A stretch of 64,000 nucleotides of DNA from positions 35,004-99,003 of the forward strand of contig CALXRP010000003.1 in the NCBI GenBank assembly GCA_944390885.1, given 5' to 3'. The translations under genes were made by a program, and so were the position numbers. This document shows positions 31,405 through 64,000 of the stretch, in pieces. The notes beneath the pieces were generated by a model. That model made no database searches. It was not told the origin of the DNA and saw nothing but the letters and a program-made list of their open reading frames with translations. Positions within the stretch are counted from its first letter, which is position 1. Every line of letters starts with the position of its first letter. The stretch is from an uncultured Alphaproteobacteria bacterium (GTDB taxonomy: Bacteria; Pseudomonadota; Alphaproteobacteria; RF32; CAG-239).

Positions 31405-32397
31405 CTATATTAAATCTGCATAAGGCAATGATTTGATATAGTCTTCCATATATTGCCAATCAGGATCACCCTTTTGCGTTATTGGCAAACGAATAGTCTC
31501 ATTACAAAATTTATTATAAAAAGCTTTTCTGCCAAATTGAAATTTATACTTATTTTTCTTCATAATTGTTGTTATAAACAATGCATTATATTTATTTAGT
31601 TTCTCGTTATGGAAACAGTATATTTCATCTGATGCTGTAAATTCATTTTCTACATAAAAAGCAGATGCAAATGTATTATATACTATGCAATTTTTTTCTA
31701 TAAAAAGAGGATTGCTAATCTGATCTGTTTGGCTATTGTTAAATTCGGAAGCTGAATAATAATCAATATCGCCACTAATTCGATCTTCAGCAATTAATCG
31801 TTGCCCATGTGTTATTCGTGTCCATAGTTTTTTATCTATAAAGGAAAATTCGCCCCATTTTTTTATATCTTTATAGCAAGTTGATATGTTTAAAGTTTCA
31901 ATAGGATTAAATTTTACATTTTTTGTTATATTATTTGTATAATTCTCCATATAATTCCAATCAGGAGCATTGTTTTTATCTACAGGAAGAAGGATATTTT
32001 CTCTTTCCAATCTACTATTACTTATCTCTCTTCCAAAATTATACTTATAACGTATTTTTTCAAAAACTGGCTTAAGATATAGAGCTATATTTTTTGTTAA
32101 CATTCTACCTTTAGGCCAAAAAACCGTAACATGATCGGATGCTATAAAATTATAATTATGATAAAAAAGATATCCGACACTACCACTATTGCTAATTGTT
32201 AAGCAATTATTATAGACAATTACTTTAGCTCCTTTTTTTGTTGTTAAAGGGGGTGCTACATAGTCATTAATGCCATTATTATCTTTAGAGGAAGAAACAT
32301 AAGGAATATCTCCTATAATATGCTCATCTTCTGTAAAGCGAACACCTCTTTTATAATCAAAAACCTCAGAAAAAGGAAAATATTTAAATTGCTTCAT
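31405..32397 (-). CDS. Restriction-modification specificity subunit with two tandem target-recognition domains (BcgIB-like)
   Basis: 330 aa. Two homologous halves each end ...FGR...LP....G.PDWxYMExY (NFGREISNSRLERENILLPVDKNNAPDWNYMENY and QFGRKAFYNKFCNETIRLPITQKGDPDWQYMEDY). 14-nt overlap with the upstream methylase-nuclease gene. Very AT-rich. Confidence 0.5.
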   Translation of the reverse strand: MKQFKYFPFSEVFDYKRGVRFTEDEHIIGDIPYVSSSKDNNGINDYVAPPLTTKKGAKVIVYNNCLTISNSGSVGYLFYHNYNFIASDHVTVFWPKGRMLTKNIALYLKPVFEKIRYKYNFGREISNSRLERENILLPVDKNNAPDWNYMENYTNNITKNVKFNPIETLNISTCYKDIKKWGEFSFIDKKLWTRITHGQRLIAEDRISGDIDYYSASEFNNSQTDQISNPLFIEKNCIVYNTFASAFYVENEFTASDEIYCFHNEKLNKYNALFITTIMKKNKYKFQFGRKAFYNKFCNETIRLPITQKGDPDWQYMEDYIKSLPYADLI

Positions 32398-34345: not shown

Positions 34346-34479
34346 AATATTTCCCCGTATAACTATATTTTTATAGTTATACTAATTTTTACACAATAAT
34401 ATAAAAATTTAGTTAATATTAACATTAATTTAATCTTTAGCCATTAACGACATCAAACAACGACTCGTTAAAAAGCTCA

Positions 34480-34590
34480 ACTTTTCTTATTAACCGCTTA
34501 AATTCATCATAATTTTCAGTCCGATAACTGCACAGTATCGCGCACCATTTATTGAAATTCCGCATCTATTGCGGATTTTTTGTTTTTAAA
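34480..34590. repeat. Cassette-flanking repeat, copy 1 (between the R-M genes and GNAT)
   Basis: cttttcttattaaccgcttaaattcatcataattttcagtccgataactgcacag...ttccgcatctattgcggatttttt. It ends in a hairpin plus T-run (ccgcatctattgcgg tttttt). Confidence 0.5.
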
Positions 34591-34764
34591 CAAAAGATTA
34601 TTTAGTCCGATTTTTGAGGTTTTGAAAAGAGCAATTTTGATAAATTGATATGAAATTTCAATTTTATTAGTAATTGATTATTAAGGGAAGGCTTGCAAAA
34701 TAGATCTTATTTGCTAGACTTAAATTATTCTGTTTTTTAATTAGGACTTATTGGGAAAATAGAC

Positions 34765-35301
34765 ATGGAATTAAATTCTGAATATTTAACAGAAAGATTA
34801 GAAATTAGGATTTTAGAAGCTCATTTTGATCTTGCTAAAAAATTGCTCAATTATGTTAAAAAGAATCAAGAGCATTTTTATTTTATGTATGGTTTTGTTG
34901 ATTATGATTCTGTGGAGGAAATGTATGATTTTCTAAAAAGAAGAAAGTTAACAAATAATCCTTTTTATGGTCTTTTTTTGAAAGGATCGGATGAATTAAT
35001 CGGTTCTATTTCAATGACCGGATATGATAAAAAAAACGGCAAAGCTGAAATTGGATATACATTGGATAAAAATTTTGTTCATCAAGGTTATATGACTGAA
35101 GCTGTTACTTTTTTTGCAGAAGAGGTGATGCGTCAGGGATGTCGCAAGTTGATTGCATATATTGATATTGAAAATGTAGATAGTCAAAAAGTTTGTGAAA
35201 GATGTGGATTTATTAAAGAGGCTAGGTTAATTAAAGAAAAATTTGATCGACATAAGAGTGAATTTGTTGATATTTGTCTTTATTGTAAGTTTGCCTCTTA
35301 A
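34765..35301 (+). CDS. GNAT-family N-acetyltransferase (RimJ/RimL-like)
   Basis: 178 aa. LEIRILEAHFDLAKKLLNYV..., motif A region IGSISMTGYDKKNGKAEIGYTLDKNFVHQGYMTEAVTFF, then RQGCRKLIAYIDIENVDSQKVCERCGF. Confidence 0.75.
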   Translation: MELNSEYLTERLEIRILEAHFDLAKKLLNYVKKNQEHFYFMYGFVDYDSVEEMYDFLKRRKLTNNPFYGLFLKGSDELIGSISMTGYDKKNGKAEIGYTLDKNFVHQGYMTEAVTFFAEEVMRQGCRKLIAYIDIENVDSQKVCERCGFIKEARLIKEKFDRHKSEFVDICLYCKFAS

Positions 35302-35329
35302 TAAACTCTCATAGCAAATTTTGCTTAAG

Positions 35330-35392
35330 AGGATTCATTTTCATATTCACCAGTCCCGATAACTGCACAGAAAAAGTGCAGCATTTAACACA
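35330..35392. repeat. Cassette-flanking repeat, copy 2 (short form)
   Basis: cagtcccgataactgcacagaaaaagtgcagcatttaacac shares the core with copies 1 and 3. Contains a perfect hairpin ctgcac-agaaaaa-gtgcag. Confidence 0.45.
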
Positions 35393-35427
35393 AAACCTTC
35401 TGATAGGGGGCTGATGTTGGAACGGAC

Positions 35428-36036
35428 TTATAATAGTTTGTGAATATCATATTCATCATAGCCTTCATAATAATAACTGACATTAATGCCTTTCATAAAG
35501 ATTTCTCGTTCATCAATTTTATCTGTCAGAGCATTTTTTAGGAGATGTTTTATTTCAATATCTTTAACAGGGCTTCTTTCCATTGCTGATAAATAATCTT
35601 CTTTATCAATTTTATTCCAATCAACAACTTTTTTAATTTCTTTCTTAAAGATTAAATCCAGCCAAATTCTTGTTGCGCGGCCGTTTCCTTCCCGGAAAGG
35701 ATGGGCAATATTCATTTCAACATATTTTTCAACAATTTCATCAAAAGTTGATTGAGGCATTTTATCTATATGTTTTAGGGCTTGCTCCAAATACATCACC
35801 GGAGCAAATCTGAAGTTGCCTTTTGATATGTTAACATCACGCATTTTTCCGGCAAAACCATAAATGTCTTCAAACAAATACTTATGAATCTGTTTTAATC
35901 CGGCAAATGTGCCTACTTTTATCTGATTGATTTTGCCACTATCAAAAAACTTTTTAGCCTTTTCTTTACTGAGTTTTTCTTCAATCTTATTCAATTCAAT
36001 TTGATTGGTAATATTCAATTTATTTTCTAAAACCAT
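35428..36036 (-). CDS. Class III Fic-family AMPylator (Fic motif plus C-terminal auto-inhibitory helix)
   Basis: Fic motif [12 protein letters not shown] (HxFx[DE]GNGRxxR). C-terminal [12 protein letters not shown] contains the [ST]xxxE[GN] inhibitory motif (S-YYY-E-G). About 200 aa, like the self-contained NmFic type. The start is likely an internal Met (MVLENK); the track starts at 36048. Confidence 0.75.
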
Positions 36037-36162
36037 TATAAAAATCATCTTTCATAAAAAATGCATTATATTTTGATAATAATATAAAATTGCTAAAATT
36101 TACATAATAAAATCAAATTGCCAACACTTCAGATTGTTGTTCCAAGCTATCTTCCAATGACT

Positions 36163-36270
36163 CCATTTTCTTGTTAATTGTTTAAGTTCATCATAAAATT
36201 CAGTCTGATAAACTACACAGCAAAAGCACAGCATTTTTTAAGATTTCCGCATTTATTACAGATTATTTGA
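36163..36270. repeat. Cassette-flanking repeat, copy 3
   Basis: ttttcttgttaattgtttaagttcatcataaaattcagtctgataaactacacagcaaaagcacagcattttttaagatttccgcatttattacagattatttg is about 80% identical to copy 1 over about 100 nt. ORF 36275..36514 next to it is probably spurious. Confidence 0.5.
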
Positions 36271-36516
36271 CTTTTTGATGTTTTTTAAGAACTCTGTAAA
36301 ATCTTTCGTTTGCTCAGGAGTAACATTTTTGTTTTCATATTTTTCCGGCGGGAAAAAGTATGTCCCTTGGGTCGGTTCCGGTCTAAATTACCTAAATAAA
36401 CGGACTTTTTATCATCCAACAGCAACATTTTGTGCTCAGTATTCTTTTTTTGCTTTTAATTTTTATATAATAAATTTATGCTGTGGGCATGGTCTTAACA
36501 ATTACGGAGGATAATT

Positions 36517-37341
36517 ATGACAAAAAGCGTGAAAAACAACGGCCTTTACACGGCCTCGCTTATTGACAGATTTTTTAGCTGGCTGAAAAAAACCGCTTAT
36601 AATAATTTTTTGGAAACAAACGAAAAATGGTTTACCAAAATTGGTTTGACATTGATGTATTTTATTGCCGTGATGTCTTTGCTGGTTGCTATTGTTTTTG
36701 TTTTGAAATATAATGCGTTAAGCACTTTTTATGTTTTGACTGCCGGAATCTGCGGCGTGTTTATTACAATTGTTTTTCAATATATTGCCGCCAAAACAAT
36801 TCCCTGCCTTAATACGTTGATCCATAATACGCCGGCAAAATTCTCTTCAACCGCCGTTTTAGAAGTTTTGGCCTTGGCTGCCGGGATTTGCGGTGTTATT
36901 GCCCTGATCGGCGGGCTGATCCTATCAATCAAAGCCAGCAGTCTTTACTTCTTTATTTCCGGTATTGCCATTTTTGTTATTTGTGAATACTGGATGGCCA
37001 TGGCTATGAAACCGGAGTTGCTCAATATTGAAATTGTAAAAAACATTTCTGCCGGAGAAGAATTTATCGGCTTATTGACATTTTTTGCCAAAGGTTCTTT
37101 GAAAATTATTCCGGTAATTTTCTGCGGCTGCATGATTTTTGCCGCTTATGACCTGATTGCCATGATGTTTGTTAAATATAATTATATCGGGGAAATTAAT
37201 CTGGAGGCCGGAATCGTTGCTTATGCAATGTGCGGTGCCCTGCTTCCGCTGTTTGGATATGTTTCATTCCTCGGTTATTATTTCACAATTGACATTGCAC
37301 GGGCAATTCTTTCAATCCCGGCAAAGCTGGATAAAAAATAA
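36517..37341 (+). CDS. Polytopic membrane protein, hypothetical
   Basis: 274 aa with RBS ggagg, 6-7 hydrophobic helices and a bidirectional terminator after it. Confidence 0.4.
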   Translation: MTKSVKNNGLYTASLIDRFFSWLKKTAYNNFLETNEKWFTKIGLTLMYFIAVMSLLVAIVFVLKYNALSTFYVLTAGICGVFITIVFQYIAAKTIPCLNTLIHNTPAKFSSTAVLEVLALAAGICGVIALIGGLILSIKASSLYFFISGIAIFVICEYWMAMAMKPELLNIEIVKNISAGEEFIGLLTFFAKGSLKIIPVIFCGCMIFAAYDLIAMMFVKYNYIGEINLEAGIVAYAMCGALLPLFGYVSFLGYYFTIDIARAILSIPAKLDKK

Positions 37342-42246: not shown

Positions 42247-42657
42247 TTATAATGTCGCGGCATACCAGCGGATTTTCTCAGCCATCGAAGCCAGACCGTT
42301 ACGGCGGCTGGGGCTTAAATGGTCTTGTAATCCCAGTTTAGCAAAAATATTTTCAACTGCAATTTCTTTAATTTCCTGCGGCGTTTTATGTGCAAAAATT
42401 ATCAGGATTATCGCCACAATTCCCCTTACAATCGCAGCATCACTGTCGCCCTGAAAATCCAGATACTTCTGTCCGTTTTCCATTGTGACCGACGGTACCA
42501 GCCAAACCTGCGACTGACAGCCGTGGACTTTCCAATCATCGGTTTTCAGATTTTCCGGCAGAGGATCCATCCGGGCGCCCAAGTCAATGATATAGCGATA
42601 TTTATCCTCCCAATCGTCCAACAAATCAAAATTTTCAATCAGCTCATCTATTGTCAT
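42247..42657 (-). CDS. sufE: Cysteine desulfuration protein SufE
   Basis: 136 aa. YRYIIDLG...HGCQSQVWL, with the conserved Cys in a loop. Typical SufE length. Confidence 0.8.
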   Translation of the reverse strand: MTIDELIENFDLLDDWEDKYRYIIDLGARMDPLPENLKTDDWKVHGCQSQVWLVPSVTMENGQKYLDFQGDSDAAIVRGIVAIILIIFAHKTPQEIKEIAVENIFAKLGLQDHLSPSRRNGLASMAEKIRWYAATL

Positions 42658-43507
42658 CTTTTTTCTCTTTATAACTTTTGGCCGCTTTTACAAATTCTTC
42701 AAATATTGCGGCGGCGGCTTTATCTTTTTGATACAAATATTCAGGGTGCCACTGGACACCGAGCACAAAACGTTCTCCCTGGTTTTCAACCGCTTCGGCC
42801 AAATTGTCGGAGGAAACAGCAACTATCCGCAAGCCCTCAAGCGCTGACGAATCATTTACAACACCTTCGCCGTGCACGGAATTGACGCTCAGTTTTTCCA
42901 TTCCCGTCCACTTATGCAGCCGGCTGTCCGAAACAACAGCAACATCGTGGGCTATTTTGTCTTTTGGTTCTTTATGCGGCAGTGCGCCCGGCAGTTCATC
43001 TTTCAGGCAGGCATACATTTTAGCACCGGCCATTCCGGCAAGCATCTGAAATCCGGCGCAAATTCCCAATACCGGCGTTTGGTTTTCATTTGCATAGTCA
43101 ATGGCATAAATATAAGCCAGCGAGCGCGGGCTGAGGCGGTGTTCCGGCGGCAGGCGTTCCGGTTCCAGATAAAATTCAGCAGGAGAATCGAAACATCCGC
43201 CCGGCAGCAGGAAAGCATCAGGCTTTAAATATTCCAATTGAGAATCGACATCTTCATAATGAATGAATGTCAGATCAGCACCGGCGGCAAGCAAGGCTTC
43301 AACGTAATTTTTATCAATCGCATAATCTTCTTTTTCCAGCCCGAGAATCACGGCGACCAAAGGCTTATCTTTATCTCTCCGGCTGTGCGGCAGGCGGATG
43401 CAAAAAGCCTCGTCTTCCGCCAATGCCCGGTCTACTTCTTGCGGCGAAAGGAGATAGTAAACGCTGCCGGGTTCAGGGTCTTTAAGATATAAAACCTTTT
43501 CTGCCAT
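42644..43507 (-). CDS. Class I glutamine amidotransferase (peptidase C26 / gamma-glutamyl-GABA hydrolase PuuD-like) embedded in the suf operon
   Basis: Catalytic Cys in GICAGFQML and His in VQWHPEY; 287 aa. Overlaps sufE by 14 nt. Confidence 0.65.
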   Translation of the reverse strand: MAEKVLYLKDPEPGSVYYLLSPQEVDRALAEDEAFCIRLPHSRRDKDKPLVAVILGLEKEDYAIDKNYVEALLAAGADLTFIHYEDVDSQLEYLKPDAFLLPGGCFDSPAEFYLEPERLPPEHRLSPRSLAYIYAIDYANENQTPVLGICAGFQMLAGMAGAKMYACLKDELPGALPHKEPKDKIAHDVAVVSDSRLHKWTGMEKLSVNSVHGEGVVNDSSALEGLRIVAVSSDNLAEAVENQGERFVLGVQWHPEYLYQKDKAAAAIFEEFVKAAKSYKEKKDDNR

Positions 43508-43516
43508 AGCCTTCTC

Positions 43517-43990
43517 CTAAAACATTTCAAACATCATTTTCGCTTCGTCGCTCATCCGCTCAAAAGTCCAAGCCGGCTCCCAAACTAACTTGACCTCAGC
43601 CTCTCCGACACCTTTGACTGCGGCAACGGCTTCCGCCGCCTGTCCGGGCAAAACGCCGGCAACCGGACAAGTCGGCGCGGTTACCGTCATTTCGATAAAA
43701 ACATTGCCGTTTTCTTTGATATCAATATTGTAAATCAGCCCCATGTCCCAGACGTTTATCATAATTTCCGGATCAGACACGGTTTTTAACGCTGCGATTA
43801 TATCTTCTCGAGAGGCAGGCTTTTCCCCTTCGGGCAGCGGTTTTCCGGCTTTTGCCACATAATCAAGAAGTTTCATCTGTTCCGCCATTGCGGCCAACAG
43901 CTGTTTTTCCGTATCTTCCGCCGTCAGGGCGCTTTCTTTTTCTTCAGACATACTTATCCCTTTACTAAACCTGCTTCTTTTATAAGACAA
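43517..43990 (-). CDS. sufT: SufT/DUF59 (MIP18-family) Fe-S assembly protein
   Basis: VSDPEIMINVWDMGLIYNIDI...TVTAPTCPVAG is the DUF59 signature. Start is probably the internal Met at about 43951. Confidence 0.6.
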   Translation of the reverse strand: MSYKRSRFSKGISMSEEKESALTAEDTEKQLLAAMAEQMKLLDYVAKAGKPLPEGEKPASREDIIAALKTVSDPEIMINVWDMGLIYNIDIKENGNVFIEMTVTAPTCPVAGVLPGQAAEAVAAVKGVGEAEVKLVWEPAWTFERMSDEAKMMFEMF

Positions 43991-44031
43991 GTTTATTAAT
44001 AAAACAAGCCGGAGCGCAATAATTATTCACG

Positions 44032-45273
44032 TTAAAAGAAAGTCTTTGCCTTTTGCAGGGCGTTGATGAAAATGTCAATGTCTTCCCGGGTGGAATAAAG
44101 CCCCAAAGAAGCACGAGCCAGCGACGTGTATCCCATTCTTTCCACCAGCGGCTGGGCGCAATGGTGCCCGGTGCGGACAGATACACCCTCTTTATCCAGA
44201 ATAAAGGCCACATCTTGCGGATGAATCCCTTCCAAAACAAAAGAAAAAACACCGCCTTTGCCTTCTGCCGTGCCGATTTCCTTAAATCCGCCGACTTCCG
44301 AAAAACGGCCGCGGGCATAAGCCGTCAGCTCCGTTTCATGCGCCGTAATGTTTTCCATTCCCAAATCTGCCATATATTGCAAGGCACGTCCCAGGCCGAT
44401 GGCTTGAACCATGGCCGGCGTTCCGGCTTCAAAACGGGCGGGAACTTCATCAAAAGTTGTTTTTTCATAAGTTACTTTTTCGACCATATCGCCGCCAAAC
44501 TGATAAGGCGGCATCGAATCGAGCAAGGCATATTTGCCGTACAAAACGCCAATGCCGCTCGGGCCGTAAGTTTTGTGTCCGGAAAAAGCAAGAAAATCGC
44601 AGTCTATGGCCTGAACATCCAATGCCTGATGAACAATAGCCTGGCAGGCATCAACCAGAATTACGGCACCGGCCTTATGCGCCTGCTCCGCCATTTTGCG
44701 CACCGGAAAGATCGTTCCCAGCACGTTGGACATTGCGGTTACGGCAACTATTTTGGTTTGCGGGCCAAGCAGCTTTAAATATTCTTCTTCCAGATAGCTG
44801 CCGTCATCGCCGATTTTAAAAATTTTCAAGACAGCGCCGGTTTCGGCCGCAATCATTTGCCACGGGATCAGATTGGCATGATGTTCGGCCTGGGAGATTA
44901 AGATTTCATCTCCCGGTTTTAAGAATTTTCGTCCCCAGCAGGCGGCAACCAGATTGATTGCTTCCGTAGCGTTACGGGTAAAAATAATTTCCCGGTTATC
45001 AGCGGCATTAATAAAATTTTGCACAATTTTACGGGCGTTTTCATATTCCAGCGTCATATGCTCGGACAGATAGTAAGCGCCGCGGTGGACATTGGCATAA
45101 CAAGTCGAGTAAAGGCGGGTTATGGTATCAATAACGCATTGGGGCTTTTGCGCCGAAGCGGCAGAATCGAGAAATGTATTCGGCTTGCCGTTTATTTTTT
45201 GCGCCAATACCGGAAAATCCTGACGAATTTTATATACATCGTACATAATTTTTTCCTTATCTCTAAAATTCAA
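44032..45273 (-). CDS. sufS: Cysteine desulfurase SufS (class V aminotransferase, group II)
   Basis: PLP-lysine region (AFSGHKTYGPSGIGVLYG), catalytic Cys loop (RTGHHCAQP), 413 aa. The track starts at TTG; the ATG is 9 codons in. Confidence 0.9.
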   Translation of the reverse strand: MNFRDKEKIMYDVYKIRQDFPVLAQKINGKPNTFLDSAASAQKPQCVIDTITRLYSTCYANVHRGAYYLSEHMTLEYENARKIVQNFINAADNREIIFTRNATEAINLVAACWGRKFLKPGDEILISQAEHHANLIPWQMIAAETGAVLKIFKIGDDGSYLEEEYLKLLGPQTKIVAVTAMSNVLGTIFPVRKMAEQAHKAGAVILVDACQAIVHQALDVQAIDCDFLAFSGHKTYGPSGIGVLYGKYALLDSMPPYQFGGDMVEKVTYEKTTFDEVPARFEAGTPAMVQAIGLGRALQYMADLGMENITAHETELTAYARGRFSEVGGFKEIGTAEGKGGVFSFVLEGIHPQDVAFILDKEGVSVRTGHHCAQPLVERMGYTSLARASLGLYSTREDIDIFINALQKAKTFF

Positions 45274-45315
45274 TTTTTAAGAAATCATTCGGTAATCTGC
45301 CTCATCAACCCTTCT
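45249..45315. repeat. MITE-like repeat, short copy, in the sufD-sufS spacer (overlaps the sufS start)
   Basis: tttttccttatctctaaaattcaattttta immediately joined to agaaatcattcggtaatctgcctcatcaaccc. These are the two ends of the 2229-2500 element with no internal core. Confidence 0.4.
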
Positions 45316-45368
45316 GGCCATTGCCCTTTTACCAAAGAGGAAACTTAAATTTTTCCTTACGCGTAAAA

Positions 45369-46652
45369 TCAGAGCATGGATTTCAGCCAGTTTCGGACGG
45401 GTTCCGAATCCACTTTCAGCAAAACGTCATCCAGAAAAGCCTCAACCAAAATCTGTCTGGCCTCATCTTCATCTATTCCGCGGGAGCGCATATAAAACAG
45501 CTGCTCTTCATCCAGTTCTCCGCTGGCCGCGCCATGCGAGCACTTCACATCATCGGCAAAAATTTCCAGCTCCGGCTTACAATCGATTTCTGCCGTATCC
45601 GACAGTAACAGCGCCTTATGCAGCTGTCTTCCTTCCGTATGAACGGCGTTCGGCGCAATATGGATTTTGCCCTGGAATACGCCTTTTGCCTCACCGTCCA
45701 CAACGCCTTTTACCAATTGTTCCGAATAAGTTTCCGGAGAAATGTGCTCAATCAGCGTTGTTGTATCGAGCGTTGCCCAGCCGGACATTTTGTAAGCGGC
45801 ATCGACGCGAGTTTCCGCTCCTCTATCCAACAATTTTACCCGGACTTCGTCCCGTCCCAAATCGGCTCCTTTTTGCAGGCAGAAATGATGATACTTTCCG
45901 CCGGCCTTGACCTGCACGGCAGACAAAGACACATGCGCGGCCTTAAACGCCTCATCCTGCAGCTTGTAATGCCGCAGCTGAGCGTTCTTCCCGACCATAA
46001 CTTCATTTACGATATTGGCAAAATAACGGGATTTTTCAATGCCGGAATAATGAAAATATTCAACAATTTCTGCCTCAGCACCGCTTTCCAAAACAATCAG
46101 ATTGCGCAGGTTATAAAACAAATTGCTCTCTCCGGCGCAGGTATGGCTGATTATGGCCAGAGGCTTGTCCAGCTTTACGCCGCGCTCAATGCAGACAAAA
46201 ACGCCGTTTTCCAAATAAGCCGTATTCAAAGCGGCAAAAGGCGCGTTTTCCATGTCGGCAATTTTGCCCATCCAGCGGCGGCAGATTTCATTATCGGCAA
46301 TTGCTTCATCCAGCGGCAAAACCGTAACGCCTTCCGGCAAATGATTATGTTCATGCTGCCAAAAGCCGTTTTCAAAACGAATCTGATAAGCCTCAAAAGG
46401 CAAGTTTTGTTTGCAGTAGCAGTCTTCTCCGTCATGATGCCGGCAACCGCAGGAACATTCGTGTGCAGCCGGCGTTTCAGGCCAAACAAAATCATCCGCG
46501 TTCAAAATCCGGGGCTTGGTATATTTCCAGTCCTCCACTTTTGCTCCCGGAACGCCCAAGCGCCGGAAAATATCAGCGCCTTTTTCACGCAGAGCGCAGA
46601 GCCAGGGGATATCTTCCCCGAAAAGTTTTTTATCTTGCAGCAATCCCGGCAT
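45369..46652 (-). CDS. sufD: Fe-S cluster assembly protein SufD with Cys-rich insertion
   Basis: 427 aa with the SufBD beta-helix C-terminus. Unusual N-proximal insert HECSCGCRHHDGEDCYCKQN. 1-nt overlap with sufC. Confidence 0.85.
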   Translation of the reverse strand: MPGLLQDKKLFGEDIPWLCALREKGADIFRRLGVPGAKVEDWKYTKPRILNADDFVWPETPAAHECSCGCRHHDGEDCYCKQNLPFEAYQIRFENGFWQHEHNHLPEGVTVLPLDEAIADNEICRRWMGKIADMENAPFAALNTAYLENGVFVCIERGVKLDKPLAIISHTCAGESNLFYNLRNLIVLESGAEAEIVEYFHYSGIEKSRYFANIVNEVMVGKNAQLRHYKLQDEAFKAAHVSLSAVQVKAGGKYHHFCLQKGADLGRDEVRVKLLDRGAETRVDAAYKMSGWATLDTTTLIEHISPETYSEQLVKGVVDGEAKGVFQGKIHIAPNAVHTEGRQLHKALLLSDTAEIDCKPELEIFADDVKCSHGAASGELDEEQLFYMRSRGIDEDEARQILVEAFLDDVLLKVDSEPVRNWLKSML

Positions 46653-47407
46653 TATTTTTCTCTCACAAAATCGGCATAGCCTTTTTCTTCCAGCTCCAGC
46701 GCCAGATTTTTATCACCGGATTTTACGATATGACCGTCGGCGAAAATATGAACATAGTCCGGAACAATATAGTTCAGCAGGCGCTGATAATGAGTAATGA
46801 CCAGCATTGAACGCTTGCCGTCACGCAAAGCGTTGACCCCACCGGCAACAACTTTTAACGCATCTATATCCAGTCCGGAATCGGCTTCATCAAGAATCGA
46901 CAAGTCGGGTTTCAAGATTGACATCTGGAGCGTTTCCAGCCTTTTCTTTTCTCCGCCGGAAAAACCGACATTGACCGGACGTTTTATCATCTCATTGCCA
47001 ATTCCGAGTTTTTGTCCTTCTTCCCGGACCAGTTTTAAAAATTCAAACGTATCCATTTCCGGCAGATTTTGGTGTTTGCGCACGGCATTGACGGCATGTT
47101 TCAGAAAAGTGGCGGTTGGCACGCCGGGAATCTCAACCGGATACTGCATACAGAGAAAGATACCTTCCCGGGCACGCTCTTCCGTTGACATAGCGGTTAA
47201 ATCTTTTCCCTTAAAACGTACGGAGCCGGAAGTGATTTCGTATCCGGGCTTGCCGGTCAAGACATAAGACAAGGTAGACTTTCCGGCACCGTTCGGCCCC
47301 ATAACGGCGTGAACCTCGCCTTCATTTATCGTCAGGTTAAAGCCTTTAATAATTTCCTTATCGCCAACGCGGGCATGTAAATCTTCAATTTCCAAAAGCG
47401 GCGTCAT
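46652..47407 (-). CDS. sufC: Fe-S cluster assembly ATPase SufC
   Basis: Walker A GPNGAGKST, ABC signature FSGGEKKR, Walker B ILDEADSGLD; 251 aa. Confidence 0.9.
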   Translation of the reverse strand: MTPLLEIEDLHARVGDKEIIKGFNLTINEGEVHAVMGPNGAGKSTLSYVLTGKPGYEITSGSVRFKGKDLTAMSTEERAREGIFLCMQYPVEIPGVPTATFLKHAVNAVRKHQNLPEMDTFEFLKLVREEGQKLGIGNEMIKRPVNVGFSGGEKKRLETLQMSILKPDLSILDEADSGLDIDALKVVAGGVNALRDGKRSMLVITHYQRLLNYIVPDYVHIFADGHIVKSGDKNLALELEEKGYADFVREK

Positions 47408-47462
47408 TTTCTTCTCTCAAATTTTGATTTTGTAACTTTAGTTTTATATATAGAGTATTTTT

Positions 47463-48194
47463 TTACATTTTCCAAGCAATCTTTACACGAGCCAGTTCAC
47501 GCCCGTCATTCAGGGAGCAAATGCGGTGCAGCGATATCTGTCCGTTTCGCTCGGTTTCTACAATAACCTTTTCTCCCAGGCGGCATTCTTTTTCAAACGC
47601 GACTTCAATTTCTTCCGGCGTGTGGGCGGTACGAAAATCTGCTCCGACGGCTTCTGCCGCCCATAACGGATAGACAGCATTGTTCACATGCTTGTTGAAA
47701 TCGATATCGTCAAAACGGACGTTGAACTCCATCCGGCAGTCAACGCGAGAAACATCGGCGATTTTCGGGAAATCAGTTTGCAGCGCGCGTTCGGGAATAA
47801 CCTGATATGCCGGCAATCCCTCTCGGGAAACAAGCGGACGTTTTTTGTGAAAATCTATCAGAATCCACTGGCTGGAAGCCGTTATGATATTTTCTCCGCA
47901 GCTGTCTGCCACAATAAAATCCCGGATTTTACCCAGTTTCTTTTCTGCCGACGGCCAGGTCTGAACCGTAATTTTTTCATGAAATTTCGGCAGGCGGTCA
48001 ATGTGAATATGATAATTCGTTCCGACCCAGGCAAGCCCCTGTTCCCGGCAAAAATCAAGCCCGAGTCCCATATCTGCGATATGGTTGTCCGCAATGTCCT
48101 GAAAAATATTCATTAACGTGATCAAGCGCAGTTCGCCGTTTTTATCACATTCATAACTGCGAATCAGATAGTCTTTTTTGAGCTTTTTCAGCAT
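47463..48194 (-). CDS. Acyl-ACP thioesterase-family protein
   Basis: 243 aa double hot-dog pattern (IRSYECDKNGELRLITLMNIFQDIA...; second half RMEFNVRFDDIDFNKHVNNAVY). Confidence 0.55.
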   Translation of the reverse strand: MLKKLKKDYLIRSYECDKNGELRLITLMNIFQDIADNHIADMGLGLDFCREQGLAWVGTNYHIHIDRLPKFHEKITVQTWPSAEKKLGKIRDFIVADSCGENIITASSQWILIDFHKKRPLVSREGLPAYQVIPERALQTDFPKIADVSRVDCRMEFNVRFDDIDFNKHVNNAVYPLWAAEAVGADFRTAHTPEEIEVAFEKECRLGEKVIVETERNGQISLHRICSLNDGRELARVKIAWKM

Positions 48195-51781: not shown

Positions 51782-51856
<75 letters not shown>

Positions 51857-51956: not shown

Positions 51957-53909
51957 ATGATTTCGCGACAAGAAGCTTTACAAAACTGGCAGGAAAACGG
52001 AATGGACGAGATTGTCTGCCATATTGCGCAGGGCAGTTTTTATGCCGGCCGCAATCCGGCTTCTTTGAATTTTGAAGAAAAAACCGAGTGCAGAAACTTT
52101 TCTGAAAAAACAGCAAATATTTTATATAATTTGGGATTTGAAGACTTTTTCAGAAAAGAGCAAATTTCCAAAAGAGATATTCATACTTTTAGCGGCCGCA
52201 ATACTTATCTGACTTTGATTAATTTATATGATAAAGAGTTGACTGCCCGCTGTCTGAAATATTCAAAAGCTTACGGAAAGCTGCAGCAGAAATATCATTT
52301 TGACGACAGTTACAGAGATTTGGCCGGAGAAATTTTGCCCGGTGTTTCAAAATGTGCCGACTTTTTATGTCCTGAAAAGCCGGAGATGCTTTTTGAAAAT
52401 GCTTTATCGACATTGAACAAATTTGTCAATCGGGGGGATGATGCCGAAGAGATATCTTCTCTTATGGGTAATGTTTATAGTGTAGATTACGAAAACGGCC
52501 GTAATTTTAAGGCCATGCAGCTAAAATACCTGCAAGAAATGTTGAGGCGCAATATTAATACGGATCTCTTAAAGGTTCTTAACTCGGCCTTTTACACAAT
52601 CTATTCCGACCGGCCCCAGCGCCTGAGCGAAACAACTTATCCGGGGTTGTTGCAAAACGTGCTTTCCGAAGCTATTTCCAATCCTAACTCGTTGTTTTGT
52701 AAGCAGACCAATATGTACGGGACGCAAAATCATACTTACGGAATCGGGGATTATACATATCAGGCTTATACCAGCAGGGTTACTCCGGAAAATCTTCATG
52801 AGCTAAAAACCATCGCCAAAGAACTTCCGGCTACGGATTTTGACATTTTTCAAAGCAATCGACAGGACGGTATTGCCCTGAGCCGCACATACGGCGGACT
52901 GCGAGATTTGATTCACGATGAAATCCGCGGCGTTAATGAAGTTATTGACCAAATGGTTGCTTTTTATGACAGCCACGGCAATGCGCCGACAGATAAAATT
53001 ATTAAAGCCCTGGGAAAAAGCAATGCCGCACTTGAGCTTCAGAGTTATGATAAGGTTATTACTTATAAAAACAGAGAGAAAAAGGAAATTTCAGAGAGCA
53101 ATATTGCCATTTTACGACGGTTGCAAAAAAACATGCAGCAAAGCAGAGGAAAATGTCCGAAAGTTCAAGACGAAACGCAGCCGTTGATTGATGAGATTGA
53201 GAACAGCAAATATGTTCCGGGCGAGGCACTTCAGAAGCTGCTGACCGGATTTAACCAGAAAATTGAAAACAAAATGACGCGCAGAGAAATCGGCATTGCC
53301 CCGCAAGAAATTGACTTTATCAACTGGGCAGACAAGAAAGCCCAGCAGTATCTTAATGATATGAGCTTTGAAGAACAATGCGGCTTTTATAAGACCCCGT
53401 TATGTTATGAAATTTTAAAGTTTAATGAATTGACCAACAGTCCGGCGACAGAGTTCTCGGCGGCAGAATTTGATCATTTTTATCTTACACAAGTTTTTCA
53501 TGCCCCGACAATGCGCCAGGCCTACCAAAATATTGCCGGCAGACAAAACAGAAATATGTTCGGGCTGATGGAAAAATACGAAAAAATTGCCGAGAAGAAC
53601 CGCTTGCAGGCAAAGCTTATTTTCTCGGATCCGAATGTTTCTTACAGCGAAGATTTTAAATCTTCTTCTTTTGACGATATTGAGCAACAAAAGCGTGAAC
53701 GAATTGCCGGCATTGCTTCCGGAAACTGTATGAAAGCGCTGCAAAACCTGACTCAATATAAGGAGGCTTCCAGCGATATCGGCGCCCGTTACCGCAAAGA
53801 GCTGGAAGCTACCGATCCGCTGCGCCGCGATTTTGATATTTTGCTTACTGACATGAACAAAAAGGGGATTGATCTTTCCGTCCGTTTTAGAGGCAGAGAA
53901 AGAAACTAA
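51957..53909 (+). CDS. Large hypothetical protein (650 aa), no recognisable domain; possible effector or island cargo next to tRNA-Val
   Basis: Long open frame, hydrophilic, no TM segments or signal peptide visible. The promoter region is AT-rich. Confidence 0.45.
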   Translation: MISRQEALQNWQENGMDEIVCHIAQGSFYAGRNPASLNFEEKTECRNFSEKTANILYNLGFEDFFRKEQISKRDIHTFSGRNTYLTLINLYDKELTARCLKYSKAYGKLQQKYHFDDSYRDLAGEILPGVSKCADFLCPEKPEMLFENALSTLNKFVNRGDDAEEISSLMGNVYSVDYENGRNFKAMQLKYLQEMLRRNINTDLLKVLNSAFYTIYSDRPQRLSETTYPGLLQNVLSEAISNPNSLFCKQTNMYGTQNHTYGIGDYTYQAYTSRVTPENLHELKTIAKELPATDFDIFQSNRQDGIALSRTYGGLRDLIHDEIRGVNEVIDQMVAFYDSHGNAPTDKIIKALGKSNAALELQSYDKVITYKNREKKEISESNIAILRRLQKNMQQSRGKCPKVQDETQPLIDEIENSKYVPGEALQKLLTGFNQKIENKMTRREIGIAPQEIDFINWADKKAQQYLNDMSFEEQCGFYKTPLCYEILKFNELTNSPATEFSAAEFDHFYLTQVFHAPTMRQAYQNIAGRQNRNMFGLMEKYEKIAEKNRLQAKLIFSDPNVSYSEDFKSSSFDDIEQQKRERIAGIASGNCMKALQNLTQYKEASSDIGARYRKELEATDPLRRDFDILLTDMNKKGIDLSVRFRGRERN

Positions 53910-54085: not shown

Positions 54086-54769
54086 ATGACGGAAAATGCA
54101 GCGGGAAAAACAAGAAAAAACCAGAAAAAGACACGGCGAAAAAAAGAAAACATTTTCAAAAATTCTCGACAGACAGAATCGAAACCTAAAAGAATCTTAG
54201 AGACAGAAAGAAGAGCAAAAGCTCAACCGCGCGTATCGGCAGCATCTCTTTCTGAGCCTTGCTCTTCCTGCTTAAAGCCTTATGAAATTTATATTATTGT
54301 TGCCGTTTTGGCTCTTTTGGCTTTGATTGCTTATACAATCAGCCAAAGCTCTCTGCCTGAAAAAACAGATTTGCCCCCAAATGAAACAACGGAAACAGAA
54401 GAAAGCGAAATGCCGGCGGGACCAGTCAGTATTCTTGGTTTTACTGAACTGAAAGATCAGTACGCTCTTTGTGCCAATTTGTTGTTTCAAGCCCAATATG
54501 ATACAGGGAATATCGCCGGCAGTATGGAGATTTTACAAATTGCCAATCAGAAATATCAGCGTCTGACAGGGGAGCTGATTGAACAAAATCCGGCCATGCA
54601 GGCAGAAGAAATAGAAATTTTACGGCAAATTATTCATGATGCAGAACATCCGGAGGCCAAGCAGCACCTTATTGAGGACTGTACCGAAGCTATTACGATT
54701 TTTGAAGAAATGTATAATCGGCAAGAAATGATTGATTTTAACGCTGCCAAAGAAAATGCCGGAGATTAA
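54086..54769 (+). CDS. Hypothetical single-pass membrane protein with highly basic N-terminus
   Basis: K/R-rich N-terminus (KTRKNQKKTRRKKEN), one TM helix (IYIIVAVLALLALIAYTI), acidic C-terminal domain. Confidence 0.4.
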   Translation: MTENAAGKTRKNQKKTRRKKENIFKNSRQTESKPKRILETERRAKAQPRVSAASLSEPCSSCLKPYEIYIIVAVLALLALIAYTISQSSLPEKTDLPPNETTETEESEMPAGPVSILGFTELKDQYALCANLLFQAQYDTGNIAGSMEILQIANQKYQRLTGELIEQNPAMQAEEIEILRQIIHDAEHPEAKQHLIEDCTEAITIFEEMYNRQEMIDFNAAKENAGD

Positions 54770-59275: not shown

Positions 59276-59447
59276 TGTTTTCTCCTATTTATCAAAATTT
59301 TGCGTGCTTACTATACACCAAATAACACTTTTCTCAACCATAAAAATAGAGAAATTCAAAATTTTCAAGATTCTTCCTGTTTCTCATTTCTTGTTTTATA
59401 AATTTATTTATTGTTTGGGAAAACAAACAAGTTCTTTTCTTACTTTT

Positions 59448-59872
59448 CCCGGCGGGGGATGTGAAGGGTTTTGTGCTTTGAAGGGTGGATTGCCGGTATC
59501 TTTTTCTTACGTCATTGCTGGGCTTGACCCGGCAATCCACGTTAATAAAAATGCCTTATGATTGACTTGGATCCCCGGGTCAAGCCCGGGGATGACTTTA
59601 AAAAAATAAAAAGCCGGGGATGACCGGTACGACCGGTGGCGCTCAATCTGTAACATTATGCTGCAGAGACCGCGTTGCTCCGGCGGAGTTTGTGGAGGTT
59701 TTTGTGCTTTGAAGTTTATGTCATTCTCGGGCTTGACCCGAGAATCCACAGGCGACGGCCTGAACGGTCAGTTGTCGGAATTGTGCCCCGTACCCCGCGT
59801 TGCTCCGGCATTTTCTGTGAATGGCTTTGTGCTTTGAAGGGTGGATTGCCGGATCAAGTCCGGCAATGACAT
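59448..59872. repeat. GC-rich palindromic composite repeat cluster (locus 3), abutting the intact 86-aa gene
   Basis: Modules match locus 1 (ttgtgctttgaagggtggattgccgg; gtcattgctgggcttgacccggcaatccac; ttgacttggatccccgggtcaagcccggggatgac; ccacaggcgacggcctgaacggtcagttgtcggaattgtgcccc; ccgcgttgctccggc). ORFs 59268..59561, 59507..59749 and 59675..59869 inside it are spurious. Confidence 0.6.
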
Positions 59873-59895
59873 AAGGAAAATGATTGCAAAAAATA

Positions 59896-60156
59896 TTACT
59901 GCCAAGGATAGTCTTTGGCGTCGATGAGTTTTATTTCCATGACCTTATCCAGGAATGAAAACAGATATACATATTCTTCCATTCTCACATGGCAGGTGTT
60001 TCTTCTCAATTTTTCTATCCGCCCTTCCATGAAGCTTATATGGTTGGACAATTCGCTGCTGGTCAGCCCTCTTTCCGTTATTATCCGGTCTAACTCCGCA
60101 TTGCAATAACTTCGGAAAGTCTTAAACCATTCTTTTCTGTATTTTCTTGATAGCAT
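59896..60156 (-). CDS. Small hypothetical protein (86 aa); its 3' end is duplicated at 3238-3285
   Basis: Intact ORF MLSRKYRKEWFKTF...MEIKLIDAKDYPWQ with 4 Cys/His residues (C18, H39, C55, H56). Flanked by the repeat cluster. Confidence 0.45.
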   Translation of the reverse strand: MLSRKYRKEWFKTFRSYCNAELDRIITERGLTSSELSNHISFMEGRIEKLRRNTCHVRMEEYVYLFSFLDKVMEIKLIDAKDYPWQ

Positions 60157-60292
60157 TTCTTTCGCTCCTTAAATTTGTTAAAACAAAATCCGCCTAAAAA
60201 CAGGCGGATGGAACTCAAAAACTGCGATAAATCAGTCACCGTTATTCGTTACGCAAGCGCACTTATTTCCGGTACTCCGCCTAAGCGGATTT

Positions 60293-61243
60293 TTATCCTA
60301 AATAAGATTTCGGATTAACGGCTTTTTTGCCTTGGCGGATTTCAAAATGCAGCTGCGGCGAAGCAACGCCCCCGGTTGTTCCGACTGTTGATATTTTTTC
60401 TCCGCGAGCAACCCGTTGGCCTTTTTTAACCAATATTTTTTCATTATGGGCATAAGCCGTTACCCAGCCGTCATCATGCTTTATCAGGATCAGATTGCCA
60501 AAGCCTTTCAGCTCGTTTCCGGCATAAGCAACCGTTCCTTTATCTGCTGCGCGGACTGCCGTTCCTTTGGCGGCTTTGATATTAATACCGTCATTGTTCC
60601 GGCCTTTGGCAATCGGCCCGAAATTTGATATAACCGGCCCTTTAACCGGCCAGAGGAATTTGCTTTTGCGATTTTTAGAAGGCGGGGTATAAGTGTTTTT
60701 GGCCACTTTTGTTTTTGTTGTTGTGGTTTTCTTTTTGACCGTTTTAGAAGAAGAGGCTGCTTTTGATGTTGTTTTCTTTGATGTCTGTGCTTTGCGTGCC
60801 GAAGTCTGAGAAACGGAAGCAATCTGGGTTTCTCCGCCAACGATACTGTCCGGAAGCTGCAGGCGCTGTCCGACGGCTAAAGTATAGGGCGGGCGGAGGT
60901 CATTGGCCTTGCTCAGAGAATTGATGTTTACATTATAGCGTTTGGAAATATTGTATAATGTATCGCCTTTGGCAACAACATGGTAGCGGGCGCTTGGCAA
61001 ACGCACAACCTGTCCGATACGCAGACTGTAAGGAGGCTTTAAGCCGTTTAGTTCAATAATCTCGCGCAGCGGCAGATCATAGCGGCGGGAGATGCTGTAT
61101 AGCGTATCGCCCTTTTGAACAACAACCGAAGATGGCGCAGGGCCGCCCCAAAGATTGTAATTGAACAGCTGTATACGGCCGCTGTCATAAGAACAGCCGC
61201 TTAACATTGTCAACATTAATGTCAAAAGCACAAACTTTTTCAT
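60293..61243 (-). CDS. nlpD: LysM-domain M23 peptidase lipoprotein (NlpD/EnvC-like murein hydrolase activator)
   Basis: Lipobox LSGCS, two LysM repeats (VVQKGDTLYSISRRY; VVAKGDTLYNISKRY), a T/K/S-rich linker, and a C-terminal M23 domain (YAHNEKILVKKGQRVARGEKISTVGTTG). Confidence 0.8.
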   Translation of the reverse strand: MKKFVLLTLMLTMLSGCSYDSGRIQLFNYNLWGGPAPSSVVVQKGDTLYSISRRYDLPLREIIELNGLKPPYSLRIGQVVRLPSARYHVVAKGDTLYNISKRYNVNINSLSKANDLRPPYTLAVGQRLQLPDSIVGGETQIASVSQTSARKAQTSKKTTSKAASSSKTVKKKTTTTKTKVAKNTYTPPSKNRKSKFLWPVKGPVISNFGPIAKGRNNDGINIKAAKGTAVRAADKGTVAYAGNELKGFGNLILIKHDDGWVTAYAHNEKILVKKGQRVARGEKISTVGTTGGVASPQLHFEIRQGKKAVNPKSYLG

Positions 61244-61350
61244 ATCTTAACTCCTAGCATAAGATAGTTAATTTTTGTTTACATTCAGAAAAAGCTTGAT
61301 TTCCTGCATTCCGGGAGTATCTTTATGAGTCCCGGCTTAAGGAGAAAAAT

Positions 61351-63177
61351 GTGCCAAAGTTTAAAAATGACATTGAAAACAGCAATTTGCTCGGACAGGA
61401 CGCAAAATGTGTTATTTTTCATATTCTGGGATGGAGAGAATCGAAAAAAGCCCTGAATATTCTGAAAGATTTTCGTGCCGATATTGCCTTAAAAGATATT
61501 TTTGATTTTGCTGGAAACAAAAGCCTTTATGTGGCTGATAATTTTAGCGAATATAAAAAAATTTTTGATTTTATTGCGGCAGAATCTCCTGTTTTTTCTC
61601 GGTATACTCAAGAAGCCGTTGAGTGTGCCAACCGGGGAAAAGAACTTTCGCAGATTATTTTACCGCTGGTTTCCGAGCGGCATGACGCTTTTTCCTCCAC
61701 ACATATAGCGGCATTGGCAGACGGCTGGTGTTATGAGCCCGATATACGCTCCGAGCTGATCTGCGATTTTATTCGGCAAGATAAAAATCCGACAGAGAGC
61801 GCTAAAGTTATCGGAACGGCCCTTACAAATATCCGCCACAAAACAAGTAATCCTTTTGTTAAAACCGTTACCCGGGCTTTTATGGATAAAAATTCGCAGA
61901 ATGAAGCTTGTATAAATATTTTCAGTGATTGTCTGCTGGCCTCGCCGAGTTCTGATCTTTCCGAACAAATGCCTGACAAAAACGTTACGGACGATTTTAA
62001 GAAAGAAATCAGGAAAATTTCTGATGAAAAAGCGCGGGAAATGGCATTTTTAGCTTTGGAGGGAACGGGGTCTCCGAAAGCTGAAAAACTTTATCATAAT
62101 GACTATTTTTCCCACTCTGCCGAAAAGGTTATTGAATTTGTCAGCGCCCAGACCGATGTCCGTCCCGATTTTCTGCCGCAGGCGGCTCTAACATTGCAAA
62201 ACACGGCTCAAGAATCGCTTAATCAAAAACACCGCGGCGTTTTTATTCACTTATCGTCGGCCTTGTCCAAACGCCCGGCACTGGCCGAAAAACTTTTGCC
62301 TTTTTATGAAGATGCCGGGAAATTGCCTTTTGAATATGTCGGAATGCTTTTCTTTACGGCTCTGAAAACGCCGACATTGAAGCGTCGGATTATGAGGCTT
62401 TTGAAAAAATCCATCCGGTCATCTGCTTTTTCTTCCAAAGAGCCTCTTTTTAACCTTAATCCGGTTTGTCATATTCTGCAGCCGGATAATATTCAGACCC
62501 CGGAAGCTTTTGAGCTGATATATACTTATCTTAACGATGCGGTTTCTGATATGAATCAGATGCATGTTTTTTGCAAAGACTGTTTGGACAAGCTCGGCCC
62601 CAATGATACCGGCCGCCCGGAAATATTCAATATTATCAGGACAATGCACCGCAATAAAATGCTGCGTTCGAATCCAAAAGATTTCAGCCTTTTTATGGCT
62701 GATCTTGAAAGCTTTAGAATCGAAAATGCTTATCACGGCCCGCTTAACGATTATATTAACGGACTGAAAGAAAAAACACCGCTTAAACTCACGGTTTATA
62801 TCGGGCAGATTTTGAAAAACTCTTTGGATTATAAAAAAAGGTTCGGGCATTTTAAAAGAAAATTTTCTACCCTTACGGATATTGACGATGACTATGTCTG
62901 CCGACAGCCGGAAAAACACCAAAGAATGACATTGAATGAGGTGGGAAAACAATTGAACAATGCCCGGCTAACCCTGCTTGAAAAAACAAAAATTTTTTTG
63001 CAGCTGAAAAAATTTGAATATCTTGCTTTGCCGGAAAACCGGGAATACTGCAGAGAAGTGGCAAAAAGCTTGTCTTTGAATCCGTTTTATGCTAAAAGTG
63101 TGGCGTTTGCAAAATTTAATATTTTAGACGGCGGGAAGCAAACCCTAAGGAAAGTTTGGAATAAAAATGAACGATAA
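61351..63177 (+). CDS. Large hypothetical protein (608 aa) translationally coupled to sufB
   Basis: RBS aaggagaaaa before the ATG. No recognisable domain. Its stop overlaps the sufB ATG by 11 nt. Confidence 0.5.
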
Positions 63178-64000
63178 ACAGACACAAATCATTGATGAGA
63201 GCGGCGATAAATATAAATACGGCTTTGTAACCGATATTGCGGCCGATACGGCGCCAAAAGGATTAAACGCCGATATTATCCGGCTGATTTCCGCAAAGAA
63301 AGGCGAACCGGAATGGCTGCTCGACTGGCGGCTGAAAGCTTTTGAATTCTGGCAGACGATGACCGAACCGACCTGGGCAAAACTGGTTTATGACAAGATT
63401 GATTATCAGGATTTGTATTATTACTCCGCGCCGGTGCAAAAAGCCGCGCCGAAAAGCCTGGACGAAGTTGACCCCGAGCTGTTGGATACTTATGCCAAAC
63501 TCGGCATTCCGCTGAAAGAACAAGAGGCTTTGGCCGGCGTGGTGGCCGTGGACGCCGTGTTTGACAGCGTTTCGGTGGCAACAACTTATCGTGCCAAACT
63601 GGCCGAACAGGGGATTATTTTCTGCTCCATCTCCGAGGCCGTGAAAGAACATCCCGAGCTGGTGCAGAAATATCTCGGTTCCGTTGTTCCTTACACCGAC
63701 AATTTTTTTGCCTGCCTGAATTCGGCCGTATTTACCGACGGGTCGTTTGTTTATATTCCGAAAGGCGTGCGCTGTCCGATGGAACTTTCGACTTATTTTC
63801 GTATTAATGCCAAGAATACCGGGCAATTTGAGCGTACGTTGATTATTGCCGATGATGAGAGTTATGTGTCTTATCTGGAAGGCTGTACAGCGCCGCAGCG
63901 CGATGAGAATCAGCTGCATGCCGCTATTGTGGAGATTGTTGTCAATAAAGACGCCGAAGTTAAATATTCCACCGTTCAGAACTGGTATCCCGGCGATAAG
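63167..64000 (+). CDS. sufB: Fe-S cluster assembly protein SufB, 5' portion (continues beyond window)
   Basis: ATG at 63167; [20 protein letters not shown]... Block [127 protein letters not shown] is nearly collinear with E. coli SufB. Not in the ORF track because it has no stop inside the window. Confidence 0.85.

Follow-up and report, generated by a model that had tools for sequence, protein, structure and literature searches.

In the canonical sufBCDS(E/T) operon for iron-sulfur (Fe-S) cluster assembly, sufC and sufD follow sufB directly, on the same strand. In the split SUF systems of organelles and eukaryotes, sufB resides, for example, in plastid or apicoplast genomes, and sufC and sufD are encoded elsewhere. 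Here we analyze a disrupted suf operon in a 64,000-nucleotide (nt) stretch of DNA from an uncultured alphaproteobacterium (hereafter, the window; GenBank assembly GCA_944390885.1, contig CALXRP010000003.1, positions 35,004 to 99,003). The gene set of the window and its closest relatives, which form one small clade, is that of the canonical operon (SufB, SufC, SufD, SufS, SufT-like, and SufE), but a break separates sufB from sufC, and sufB now comes second in a new unit of two genes. The first gene of this unit encodes an orphan protein of 608 amino acids (aa), which we denote X. The Fe-S genes themselves are ordinary; what is new is the operon split together with the orphan leader gene, and this arrangement is confined to a few uncultured species.

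The X-sufB unit and the detached suf genes

The open reading frame (ORF) of X (61351-63177, plus strand) starts with a GTG codon that is preceded, at a distance of 7 nt, by an AAGGAG Shine-Dalgarno sequence (61339-61344). The ATG of sufB is located at 63167 and the TAA stop codon of X at 63175-63177, an overlap of 11 nt (63167..63177) that had been noted in a preliminary description of this DNA and is confirmed by direct reading of the coordinates. The overlap is 11 nt long in the relatives L002-L011, which comprise the window group and the group of the homolog P0004, 23 nt in L092, and 20 nt in L093, and AAGG-type Shine-Dalgarno-like motifs are found 3-15 nt upstream of the sufB start. A downstream start that overlaps the upstream stop is the hallmark of a translationally coupled gene pair, and initiation at sufB probably depends on the translation of X. 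No RNA structure seems to enforce this coupling; the junction folds no more stably than shuffled sequences (z from -0.9 to +0.9).

The arrangement is not due to chance: the same gene order, with an overlap of 11, 20, or 23 nt, recurs in every locus read, across five lineages. The exact look-up and word-indexed homology search of 5.8 billion proteins yielded 7 clusters of X, all full length and 55-99% identical. A filter-only hidden Markov model (HMM) profile scan of 1.84 billion representative proteins yielded 4 clusters in total, one of which is a fragment and two of which are new and divergent (P0036, 628 aa, and P0037, 622 aa; 27-28% identical to X). All ten full-length members of the family fall within 606-628 aa. 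Every genomic context of X that was read consists of (secD-)yajC-nlpD on the minus strand followed by X and the overlapping sufB on the plus strand. Within the clade, X is therefore conserved together with sufB, a point that the preliminary description had proposed to check. In the X-bearing genomes, sufB is followed by a convergent flavin-reductase/rubredoxin gene (flr, minus strand), directly in all lineages except L093, where one small cupin gene intervenes, and in most lineages slyX comes after flr. In L008, a contig 99% identical to the window, a GC-rich hairpin with a T-run, resembling a terminator, separates sufB from the convergent gene. A second sufC/sufD pair beyond the window end, envisaged in the preliminary description as something to look for, was not found: no suf gene follows sufB in the contigs of the X-bearing relatives.

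Only the first 278 codons of sufB (63167..64000, plus strand; Pfam SufBD_N and SUFBD_core) lie within the window. In L008, the full-length gene (11817-13262) encodes 482 aa, and the protein scores 905.6 bits with the NCBIfam SufB equivalog NF008773 (cut-off, 717) and 647 bits with TIGR01980 (cut-off, 346). By these profile scores, the gene downstream of X is a genuine sufB. The remainder of the operon (42247..47407) is located on the minus strand, 16 kb away, behind an acyl-ACP thioesterase gene, exactly as described previously. It consists of sufC (46652-47407), sufD (45369-46652), sufS (44032-45273), a FeS_assembly_P (sufT-like) gene (43517-43990), a Peptidase_C26 (class-I glutamine amidotransferase-like, GATase) gene (42644-43507), all five assigned with Pfam, and sufE (42247-42657), an ORF with the HGCQSQVWL (GCQS) motif. 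The thioesterase gene (47463-48194, minus strand) directly precedes sufC, forming a derived junction (47408..48194) that is common to three lineages of the clade, namely, the window, L094 (P0004 lineage), and L096, a contig from the same sample as L093, which represents the P0037 lineage. The gene order in L094 is FGase-SLT-MBL-thioesterase-sufC-sufD-sufS-sufT-GATase-sufE-sucC, and that in L096 is the same. The more distant relatives L097, L099, and L100 lack the junction, the thioesterase gene being followed by unrelated genes. Ahead of the sufC ATG, the 55-nt spacer that follows the thioesterase gene contains GAGAGAAG and the pair TTGGAA-17-TATATA, which might be a new promoter.

Outside the clade, the canonical organization prevails. 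We scanned for SufB with one genome per species, obtaining 80 other loci the neighbors of which were checked by tblastn. In 79 of these, sufB is followed by sufC, usually with sufD, sufS, and sufT next; in the remaining one (L088), the contig ends about 0.5 kb after sufB. By the same tblastn check, X is present in none of the 80. The three closest loci without X (L012, L013, and L014; SufB 92, 88, and 87% identical) all have nlpD to the left of sufB and canonical sufB-sufC-sufD(-sufS) to the right. These are relatives of the kind that, according to the preliminary description, would speak against its proposal, with the 608-aa gene missing and sufB in a canonical operon, and they are found outside the clade. 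In L012, the order is gpsA-secF-secD-yajC, one unrelated 538-aa ORF, and nlpD, and sufB-sufC-sufD-sufS-...-sufE-sucC are contiguous. The gap between nlpD and sufB differs among the three: in L013, it is empty and about 190 base pairs (bp) long, and L012 (8775-9845) and L014 (8858-9862) carry a minus-strand ORF, shown to encode a PAS-GGDEF protein in L012. Given that this site holds the minus-strand ORF in L012 and L014 and X in the clade, and is empty in L013, it has been invaded repeatedly by different genes.

In a neighbor-joining tree of SufB, the X-bearing loci form one group, sister to L012; this is a single-gene tree without bootstrap, built from a gene with signs of recombination, and is indicative only. 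The comparison of loci shows that both X and the split of the operon are derived, being restricted to one small clade of uncultured Alphaproteobacteria from gut and rumen, and that the X-sufB unit has been inherited vertically within this clade; the records related to the clade come from rumen and human gut. A single inversion of about 16 kb, from the thioesterase gene to sufB, would account for the split; in relatives with an intact operon, flr and slyX would then be expected beside the thioesterase gene. In L097, L099, and L100, other genes occupy this position, and these relatives are so distant that they neither confirm nor refute the inversion.

The 107-bp region between nlpD and X (61244..61350), which contains conserved blocks, a promoter-like pair, and the Shine-Dalgarno sequence, seems to be older than X: a stretch of about 60 nt can be aligned with the sequence between nlpD and sufB in L013, a genome without X. 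Two blocks are invariant in all five lineages aligned, GTTAATTTTTGTTTACA at 61267-61283 and CTTGATTT. The promoter-like pair consists of TTGATT (61296-61301) and TATCTT (61318-61323), separated by 16 nt; in L092 and L093, the second hexamer is TAAACT or TAAATT at 17 nt, the general pattern being TAnnnT located 16-17 nt 3' of TTGATT. The pair matches 8 of the 12 consensus positions, which is below the level flagged by a simple promoter scan, and we infer that it acts as a promoter. Under this interpretation, the insertion of X took place 3' of a preexisting divergent control region of nlpD and suf, and X now precedes sufB on their common transcript; a function of the conserved blocks in nlpD expression is just as plausible. 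Comparison by eye of the conserved block with the IscR, Fur, and PerR operator motifs quoted in PMC11475020 gave no convincing match. When X and the region 5' of sufC were scanned for consensus promoters and terminators, the counts were at or modestly above the shuffled expectation, with no convincing candidate, and a search for the ancestral sufB leader in the 3' end of X turned up only short matches at chance level.

Predicted structure and evolution of X

X is a basic, all-alpha protein (70 kDa; isoelectric point, 8.9) that carries a net charge of +5 in the C-terminal 30 aa. X has neither a hydrophobic N-terminus nor a transmembrane segment (19-residue hydropathy, 0.9 at most) and is, by prediction, soluble. 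The lack of a known domain, noted already from the sequence, is borne out by comparison with Pfam and NCBIfam, which gave no match at E<=0.01; the homologs P0003, P0004, P0036, and P0037 likewise have nothing above any gathering score in Pfam (E<=1). Nor was X matched by PDB sequences (best E, 0.63), by PADLOC, or by any model of the known SUF/ISC accessory families (SufA, SufE, SufU, SufT, SufR, IscR, NfuA, and others); the PHROGs matches have E>=0.07, and no anti-phage or phage assignment was obtained. Matches to Parvo_NS1, PP2C_C, and similar families are below the cut-offs and inconsistent among the homologs, and we discarded them.

The AlphaFold model of X (pLDDT, 84; pTM, 0.78) is a HEAT-like alpha-solenoid, with the tandem helical-hairpin repeats and the structural similarity to solved HEAT proteins that characterize the HEAT/ARM class; the assignment is at the level of predicted structure, and no repeat is recognized at the sequence level by the Pfam HEAT, ARM, or TPR models. 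A Foldseek search of PDB with the model retrieved nothing at E<=0.001 and only generic structural neighbors, with TM-scores of at most 0.26. The resemblance to MMS19, considered as a lead to Fe-S delivery, was dropped because this protein ranks 30th-51st among generic solenoids. We found no description in the literature of a sufB gene with a helical-repeat gene attached. As the most likely function of X, we propose that of a cytoplasmic protein-binding scaffold.

The preliminary description drew attention to several CxxC-type pairs in X. One of these, HVFCKDCL (C408/C411), is a true CxxC; the other, in GWCYEPD...LICDF, is a pair of cysteines 11 residues apart. C408-x2-C411, as well as C20 and C92, are invariant among close homologs only and are replaced in P0036 and P0037. 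Across the whole family, the only invariant cysteine is C567 and the only invariant histidines are H433 and H523, so that X lacks a conserved set of Cys/His ligands, such as CxxC, indicative of Fe-S or metal binding.

X is a real gene: homologs as little as 27% identical still keep its length and an intact reading frame. The ratio of nonsynonymous to synonymous substitution rates (dN/dS) lies at 0.20-0.24 for the whole gene and stays under 0.4 in each 50-codon window for which dS could be measured, compared with 0.02-0.05 for sufB and 0.05-0.15 for nlpD, which points to purifying but relaxed selection. Between lineages, the identity is 96, 93, and 91% for SufB, 85, 76, and 73% for NlpD, and only 57, 28, and 28% for X; roughly, X evolves ten times faster than its neighbors. 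The GC content at third codon positions (GC3) is also lower in X, 40% compared with 46-55% in the neighboring core genes. Within the protein, the first 80 residues and the last third are the most conserved parts, and residues 81-360 are the least conserved (15-29% identity in deep comparisons). SufB, for its part, shows 5 positions fixed specifically in the X clade, compared with 6-29 on the comparison branches tested.

There are also traces of recombination. The homolog P0002 is a mosaic: residues 1-95 and 360-608 match the window protein without a difference, and the part in between is only 32-72% identical. Between the window and L010, nucleotide identity is 64-81% over most of X but 99% from a point about 190 nt ahead of its stop codon, and it remains high across sufB. 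These last ~190 nt, the 3' end of X (62984-63177), are as conserved in nucleotides as sufB; the comparison of the window with L002 shows a single difference in ~55 nt at the 3' end. The conserved end may belong to one recombination tract together with sufB, or it may harbor an embedded DNA or RNA element.

Possible roles of X

Our preferred reading, which we hold tentatively and with somewhat less than even confidence, is that X is a lineage-specific scaffold that stays linked to sufB because sufB now depends on the promoter of X and, probably, on the ribosomes that read X. The loci compared show that the ancestral locus was canonical, with nlpD on the minus strand and sufB-sufC-sufD-sufS-...-sufE on the plus strand. 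A gene for a soluble HEAT-like alpha-solenoid was placed between the nlpD/suf intergenic control region and sufB, and a rearrangement cut the operon between sufB and sufC, putting sufCDS...E behind the acyl-ACP thioesterase gene. The outcome is the two-gene unit X-sufB, with frames overlapping by 11-23 nt, ending at the hairpin ahead of the convergent flavin-reductase/rubredoxin gene and presumably transcribed from the conserved promoter-like site 5' of X. SufB synthesis would then depend on transcription through X and probably also on ribosomes arriving from X, a dependence that alone would be enough to preserve the linkage. Under the preferred reading, X would be dispensable for the core SUF mechanism, a passenger under suf (iron or oxidative-stress) control rather than a component of Fe-S assembly or delivery. 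Four lines of evidence speak against X being a core factor of Fe-S assembly: nearly identical SufB proteins are encoded in canonical operons without X, as in the nearest genomes; X has no conserved ligand residues, the cysteines not being kept; X evolves about ten times faster than its neighbors; and SufB, with its few clade-specific changes, shows no compensatory change. Thus, the earlier suggestion that the overlap implies a functional partnership in Fe-S assembly is not supported, and the alternative offered alongside it, that a gene has captured the suf promoter position, fits the data at least as well.

Several observations weigh against this passenger scenario. Overlapping operon frames that are kept while X fell to 27-28% identity are a classic signature of functional linkage; X was gained, and sufB separated from sufCD, on the same branch, as might be expected if X makes up for the synthesis of SufB apart from SufC and SufD; the C-terminal part of X, beside sufB, is among its better-conserved regions; and purifying selection has kept X intact in all lineages found. 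A rival explanation is that X is a dedicated partner of SufB, a HEAT-like holdase or adaptor made in step with it. Such a protein could maintain SufB in a soluble or competent state until SufC2D, made from the separate transcript, becomes available, or dock the scaffold to sulfur donors or clients. The retention of the 11-23-nt overlap and the bicistronic layout in all five lineages, through deep divergence, would be expected of a partner, as would the coincidence of X gain with the sufB|sufC split and the purifying selection; HEAT-like solenoids are protein-binding scaffolds, and the N-terminal 80 aa and the C-terminal third of X are better conserved than the rest. A partnership is rather unlikely but has to be taken seriously as a competitor of the preferred reading. 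A more specific version, in which X is a bacterial HEAT-repeat SUF adaptor that arose or was recruited when sufB and sufCD separated, a prokaryotic functional analog of the MMS19-type targeting scaffold, seems unlikely, slightly more so than partnership as such.

Alternatively, X could be a fast-evolving interaction protein directed at a variable target (host, protist, phage, or competitor), possibly exported, with the suf promoter serving as a stress or iron cue. The very high divergence with a poorly kept middle part (15-29% in deep pairs), the mosaic alleles with a recombination breakpoint within X (P0002; the window and L010), the low GC3, the ankyrin-repeat proteins nearby in L008, and the apparent status of the nlpD-sufB gap as an insertion hot spot (PAS-GGDEF in L012 and L014) are all consistent with this possibility. 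However, X has no segment resembling a signal peptide or a transmembrane helix, the window ORFs that were scanned include no secretion-system genes, PADLOC and PHROGs yield no match, and dN/dS stays below 0.4 in all measurable windows, with no sign of positive selection at that resolution. On balance, we regard a variable-target role as quite unlikely. Still less probable is a role of X as a regulator or sensor of sufB, either a long leader ORF that sets SufB output or a protein that feeds back on the suf promoter. X is promoter-proximal, a position held by sufR or iscR in other suf/isc operons, the overlap would render the start of SufB synthesis sensitive to the translation of X, and the 3' end of X is unusually conserved in nucleotides (the single difference between the window and L002); yet, X has no helix-turn-helix or known regulator domain and no conserved Fe-S-sensing cysteine set, a 608-aa HEAT-like solenoid is unlike the known suf regulators, the RNA at the junction is no more stable than its shuffles, and promoter-like matches inside X are at chance level. 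Finally, the absence of a domain, the GTG start, and the AT-richness compared with the neighbors might suggest that the 608-aa ORF is not a gene at all but a chance ORF or a mis-annotation. This reading, to which we assign next to no probability, is refuted by the pattern of conservation, with full-length orthologs of 606-628 aa in five lineages, down to 27% identity and without frame disruption, as well as by dN/dS of about 0.2 and the confident AlphaFold model.

If X is a true partner of SufB, a machine thought to be fully catalogued in bacteria would gain a new, lineage-specific component, and X would show how a multi-subunit scaffold copes with uncoupled genes. If it is a passenger, which is more likely, the locus would be a natural example of an orphan gene locked between a promoter and an essential gene, and of a conserved operon that splits without visible change to its proteins. 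In either case, the scope is one small clade of uncultured gut Alphaproteobacteria, and the general impact is modest.

Other features of the locus and relation to known systems

Several features of the suf genes and their surroundings deserve mention. The GATase-like gene keeps its position between sufT and sufE in L094 and L096, making it an unusual conserved passenger of the suf operon; in the canonical relative L012, a 296-aa GATase-like ORF is found between sufS and sufT, that is, ahead of sufT. In L094 (P0004 lineage), a 98-aa GIY-YIG ORF (8827-9123) is inserted between sufD and sufS, compared with a gap of only 95 bp in the window. The gene divergent from X (60293..61243, minus strand) encodes an NlpD-like LysM/peptidase-M23 protein and is the left neighbor of sufB in relatives with and without X. 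In L002 (P0004 lineage), a flavodiiron-type (ODP/flavodoxin) gene, a Fur-family regulator, and rubrerythrin (6111-8351) lie left of nlpD, in place of the yajC-secDF genes of the window; counting the flavin-reductase/rubredoxin gene to the right of sufB, oxidative-stress genes cluster around X-sufB in this lineage. In L008, two ankyrin-repeat proteins are encoded a few kb 3' of sufB (15097-16950), beyond the point where the window ends, which hints at a eukaryote-associated lifestyle of the bacterium.

Between yajC and nlpD, the window contains an insertion of about 870 bp (59410-60283), compared with 76 bp in L008. The insertion includes a cluster of palindromes resembling repetitive extragenic palindromic (REP) elements, of the GTCATTGCCGGGCTTGACCCGGCAATCCAC type (59460-59880), and an 86-aa ORF (59896-60156, minus strand) without a Pfam match; similar palindrome cores occur near 2955-3181 and 19738-19745. 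The region 30000-37000 is a low-GC island (28-34%, compared with 40-50% elsewhere) that starts at tRNA-Thr (30164-30238), encodes a type I restriction-modification specificity subunit (31405-32397, minus strand) and methylase (32384-34345, minus strand), and is probably integrated. Two ORFs without recognizable domains (51957-53909, 650 aa, and 54086-54769, 227 aa; both on the plus strand) are located just after tRNA-Val (51782-51856). The 650-aa protein has a homolog with 65% identity in L094; it was considered as a possible paralog of X and rejected given that there is no similarity between the two.

Among the described systems, the canonical operon is the closest to the locus analyzed here, its nearest representatives sharing with the X clade the left neighbor nlpD and intergenic sequence; the difference lies in the cut after sufB and in the relocation of sufCDS...E to the other strand, 16 kb away and behind the thioesterase gene. 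The position of X, first in the transcription unit and ahead of the scaffold gene, is that of SufR, IscR, and SufA. X, however, resembles these proteins in neither sequence nor domains, lacks both a DNA-binding domain and conserved cysteines that could ligate a cluster, has, with 608 aa, about four times their size, and is confined to one small clade. With the HEAT/ARM scaffolds, including the PP2A A subunit, TOG domains, the HEAT subunits of condensin and cohesin, and MMS19, X shares 5-13% identity, a likeness of fold class only; the match to MMS19, a component of the cytosolic Fe-S assembly (CIA) targeting complex, is no better than those to many unrelated solenoids and is not evidence of an Fe-S role. 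Finally, the split SUF of organelles resembles the X clade in that sufB belongs to a transcription unit apart from sufC and sufD; in the X clade, however, the split has occurred within one bacterial chromosome, over 16 kb, and is accompanied by a new upstream gene.

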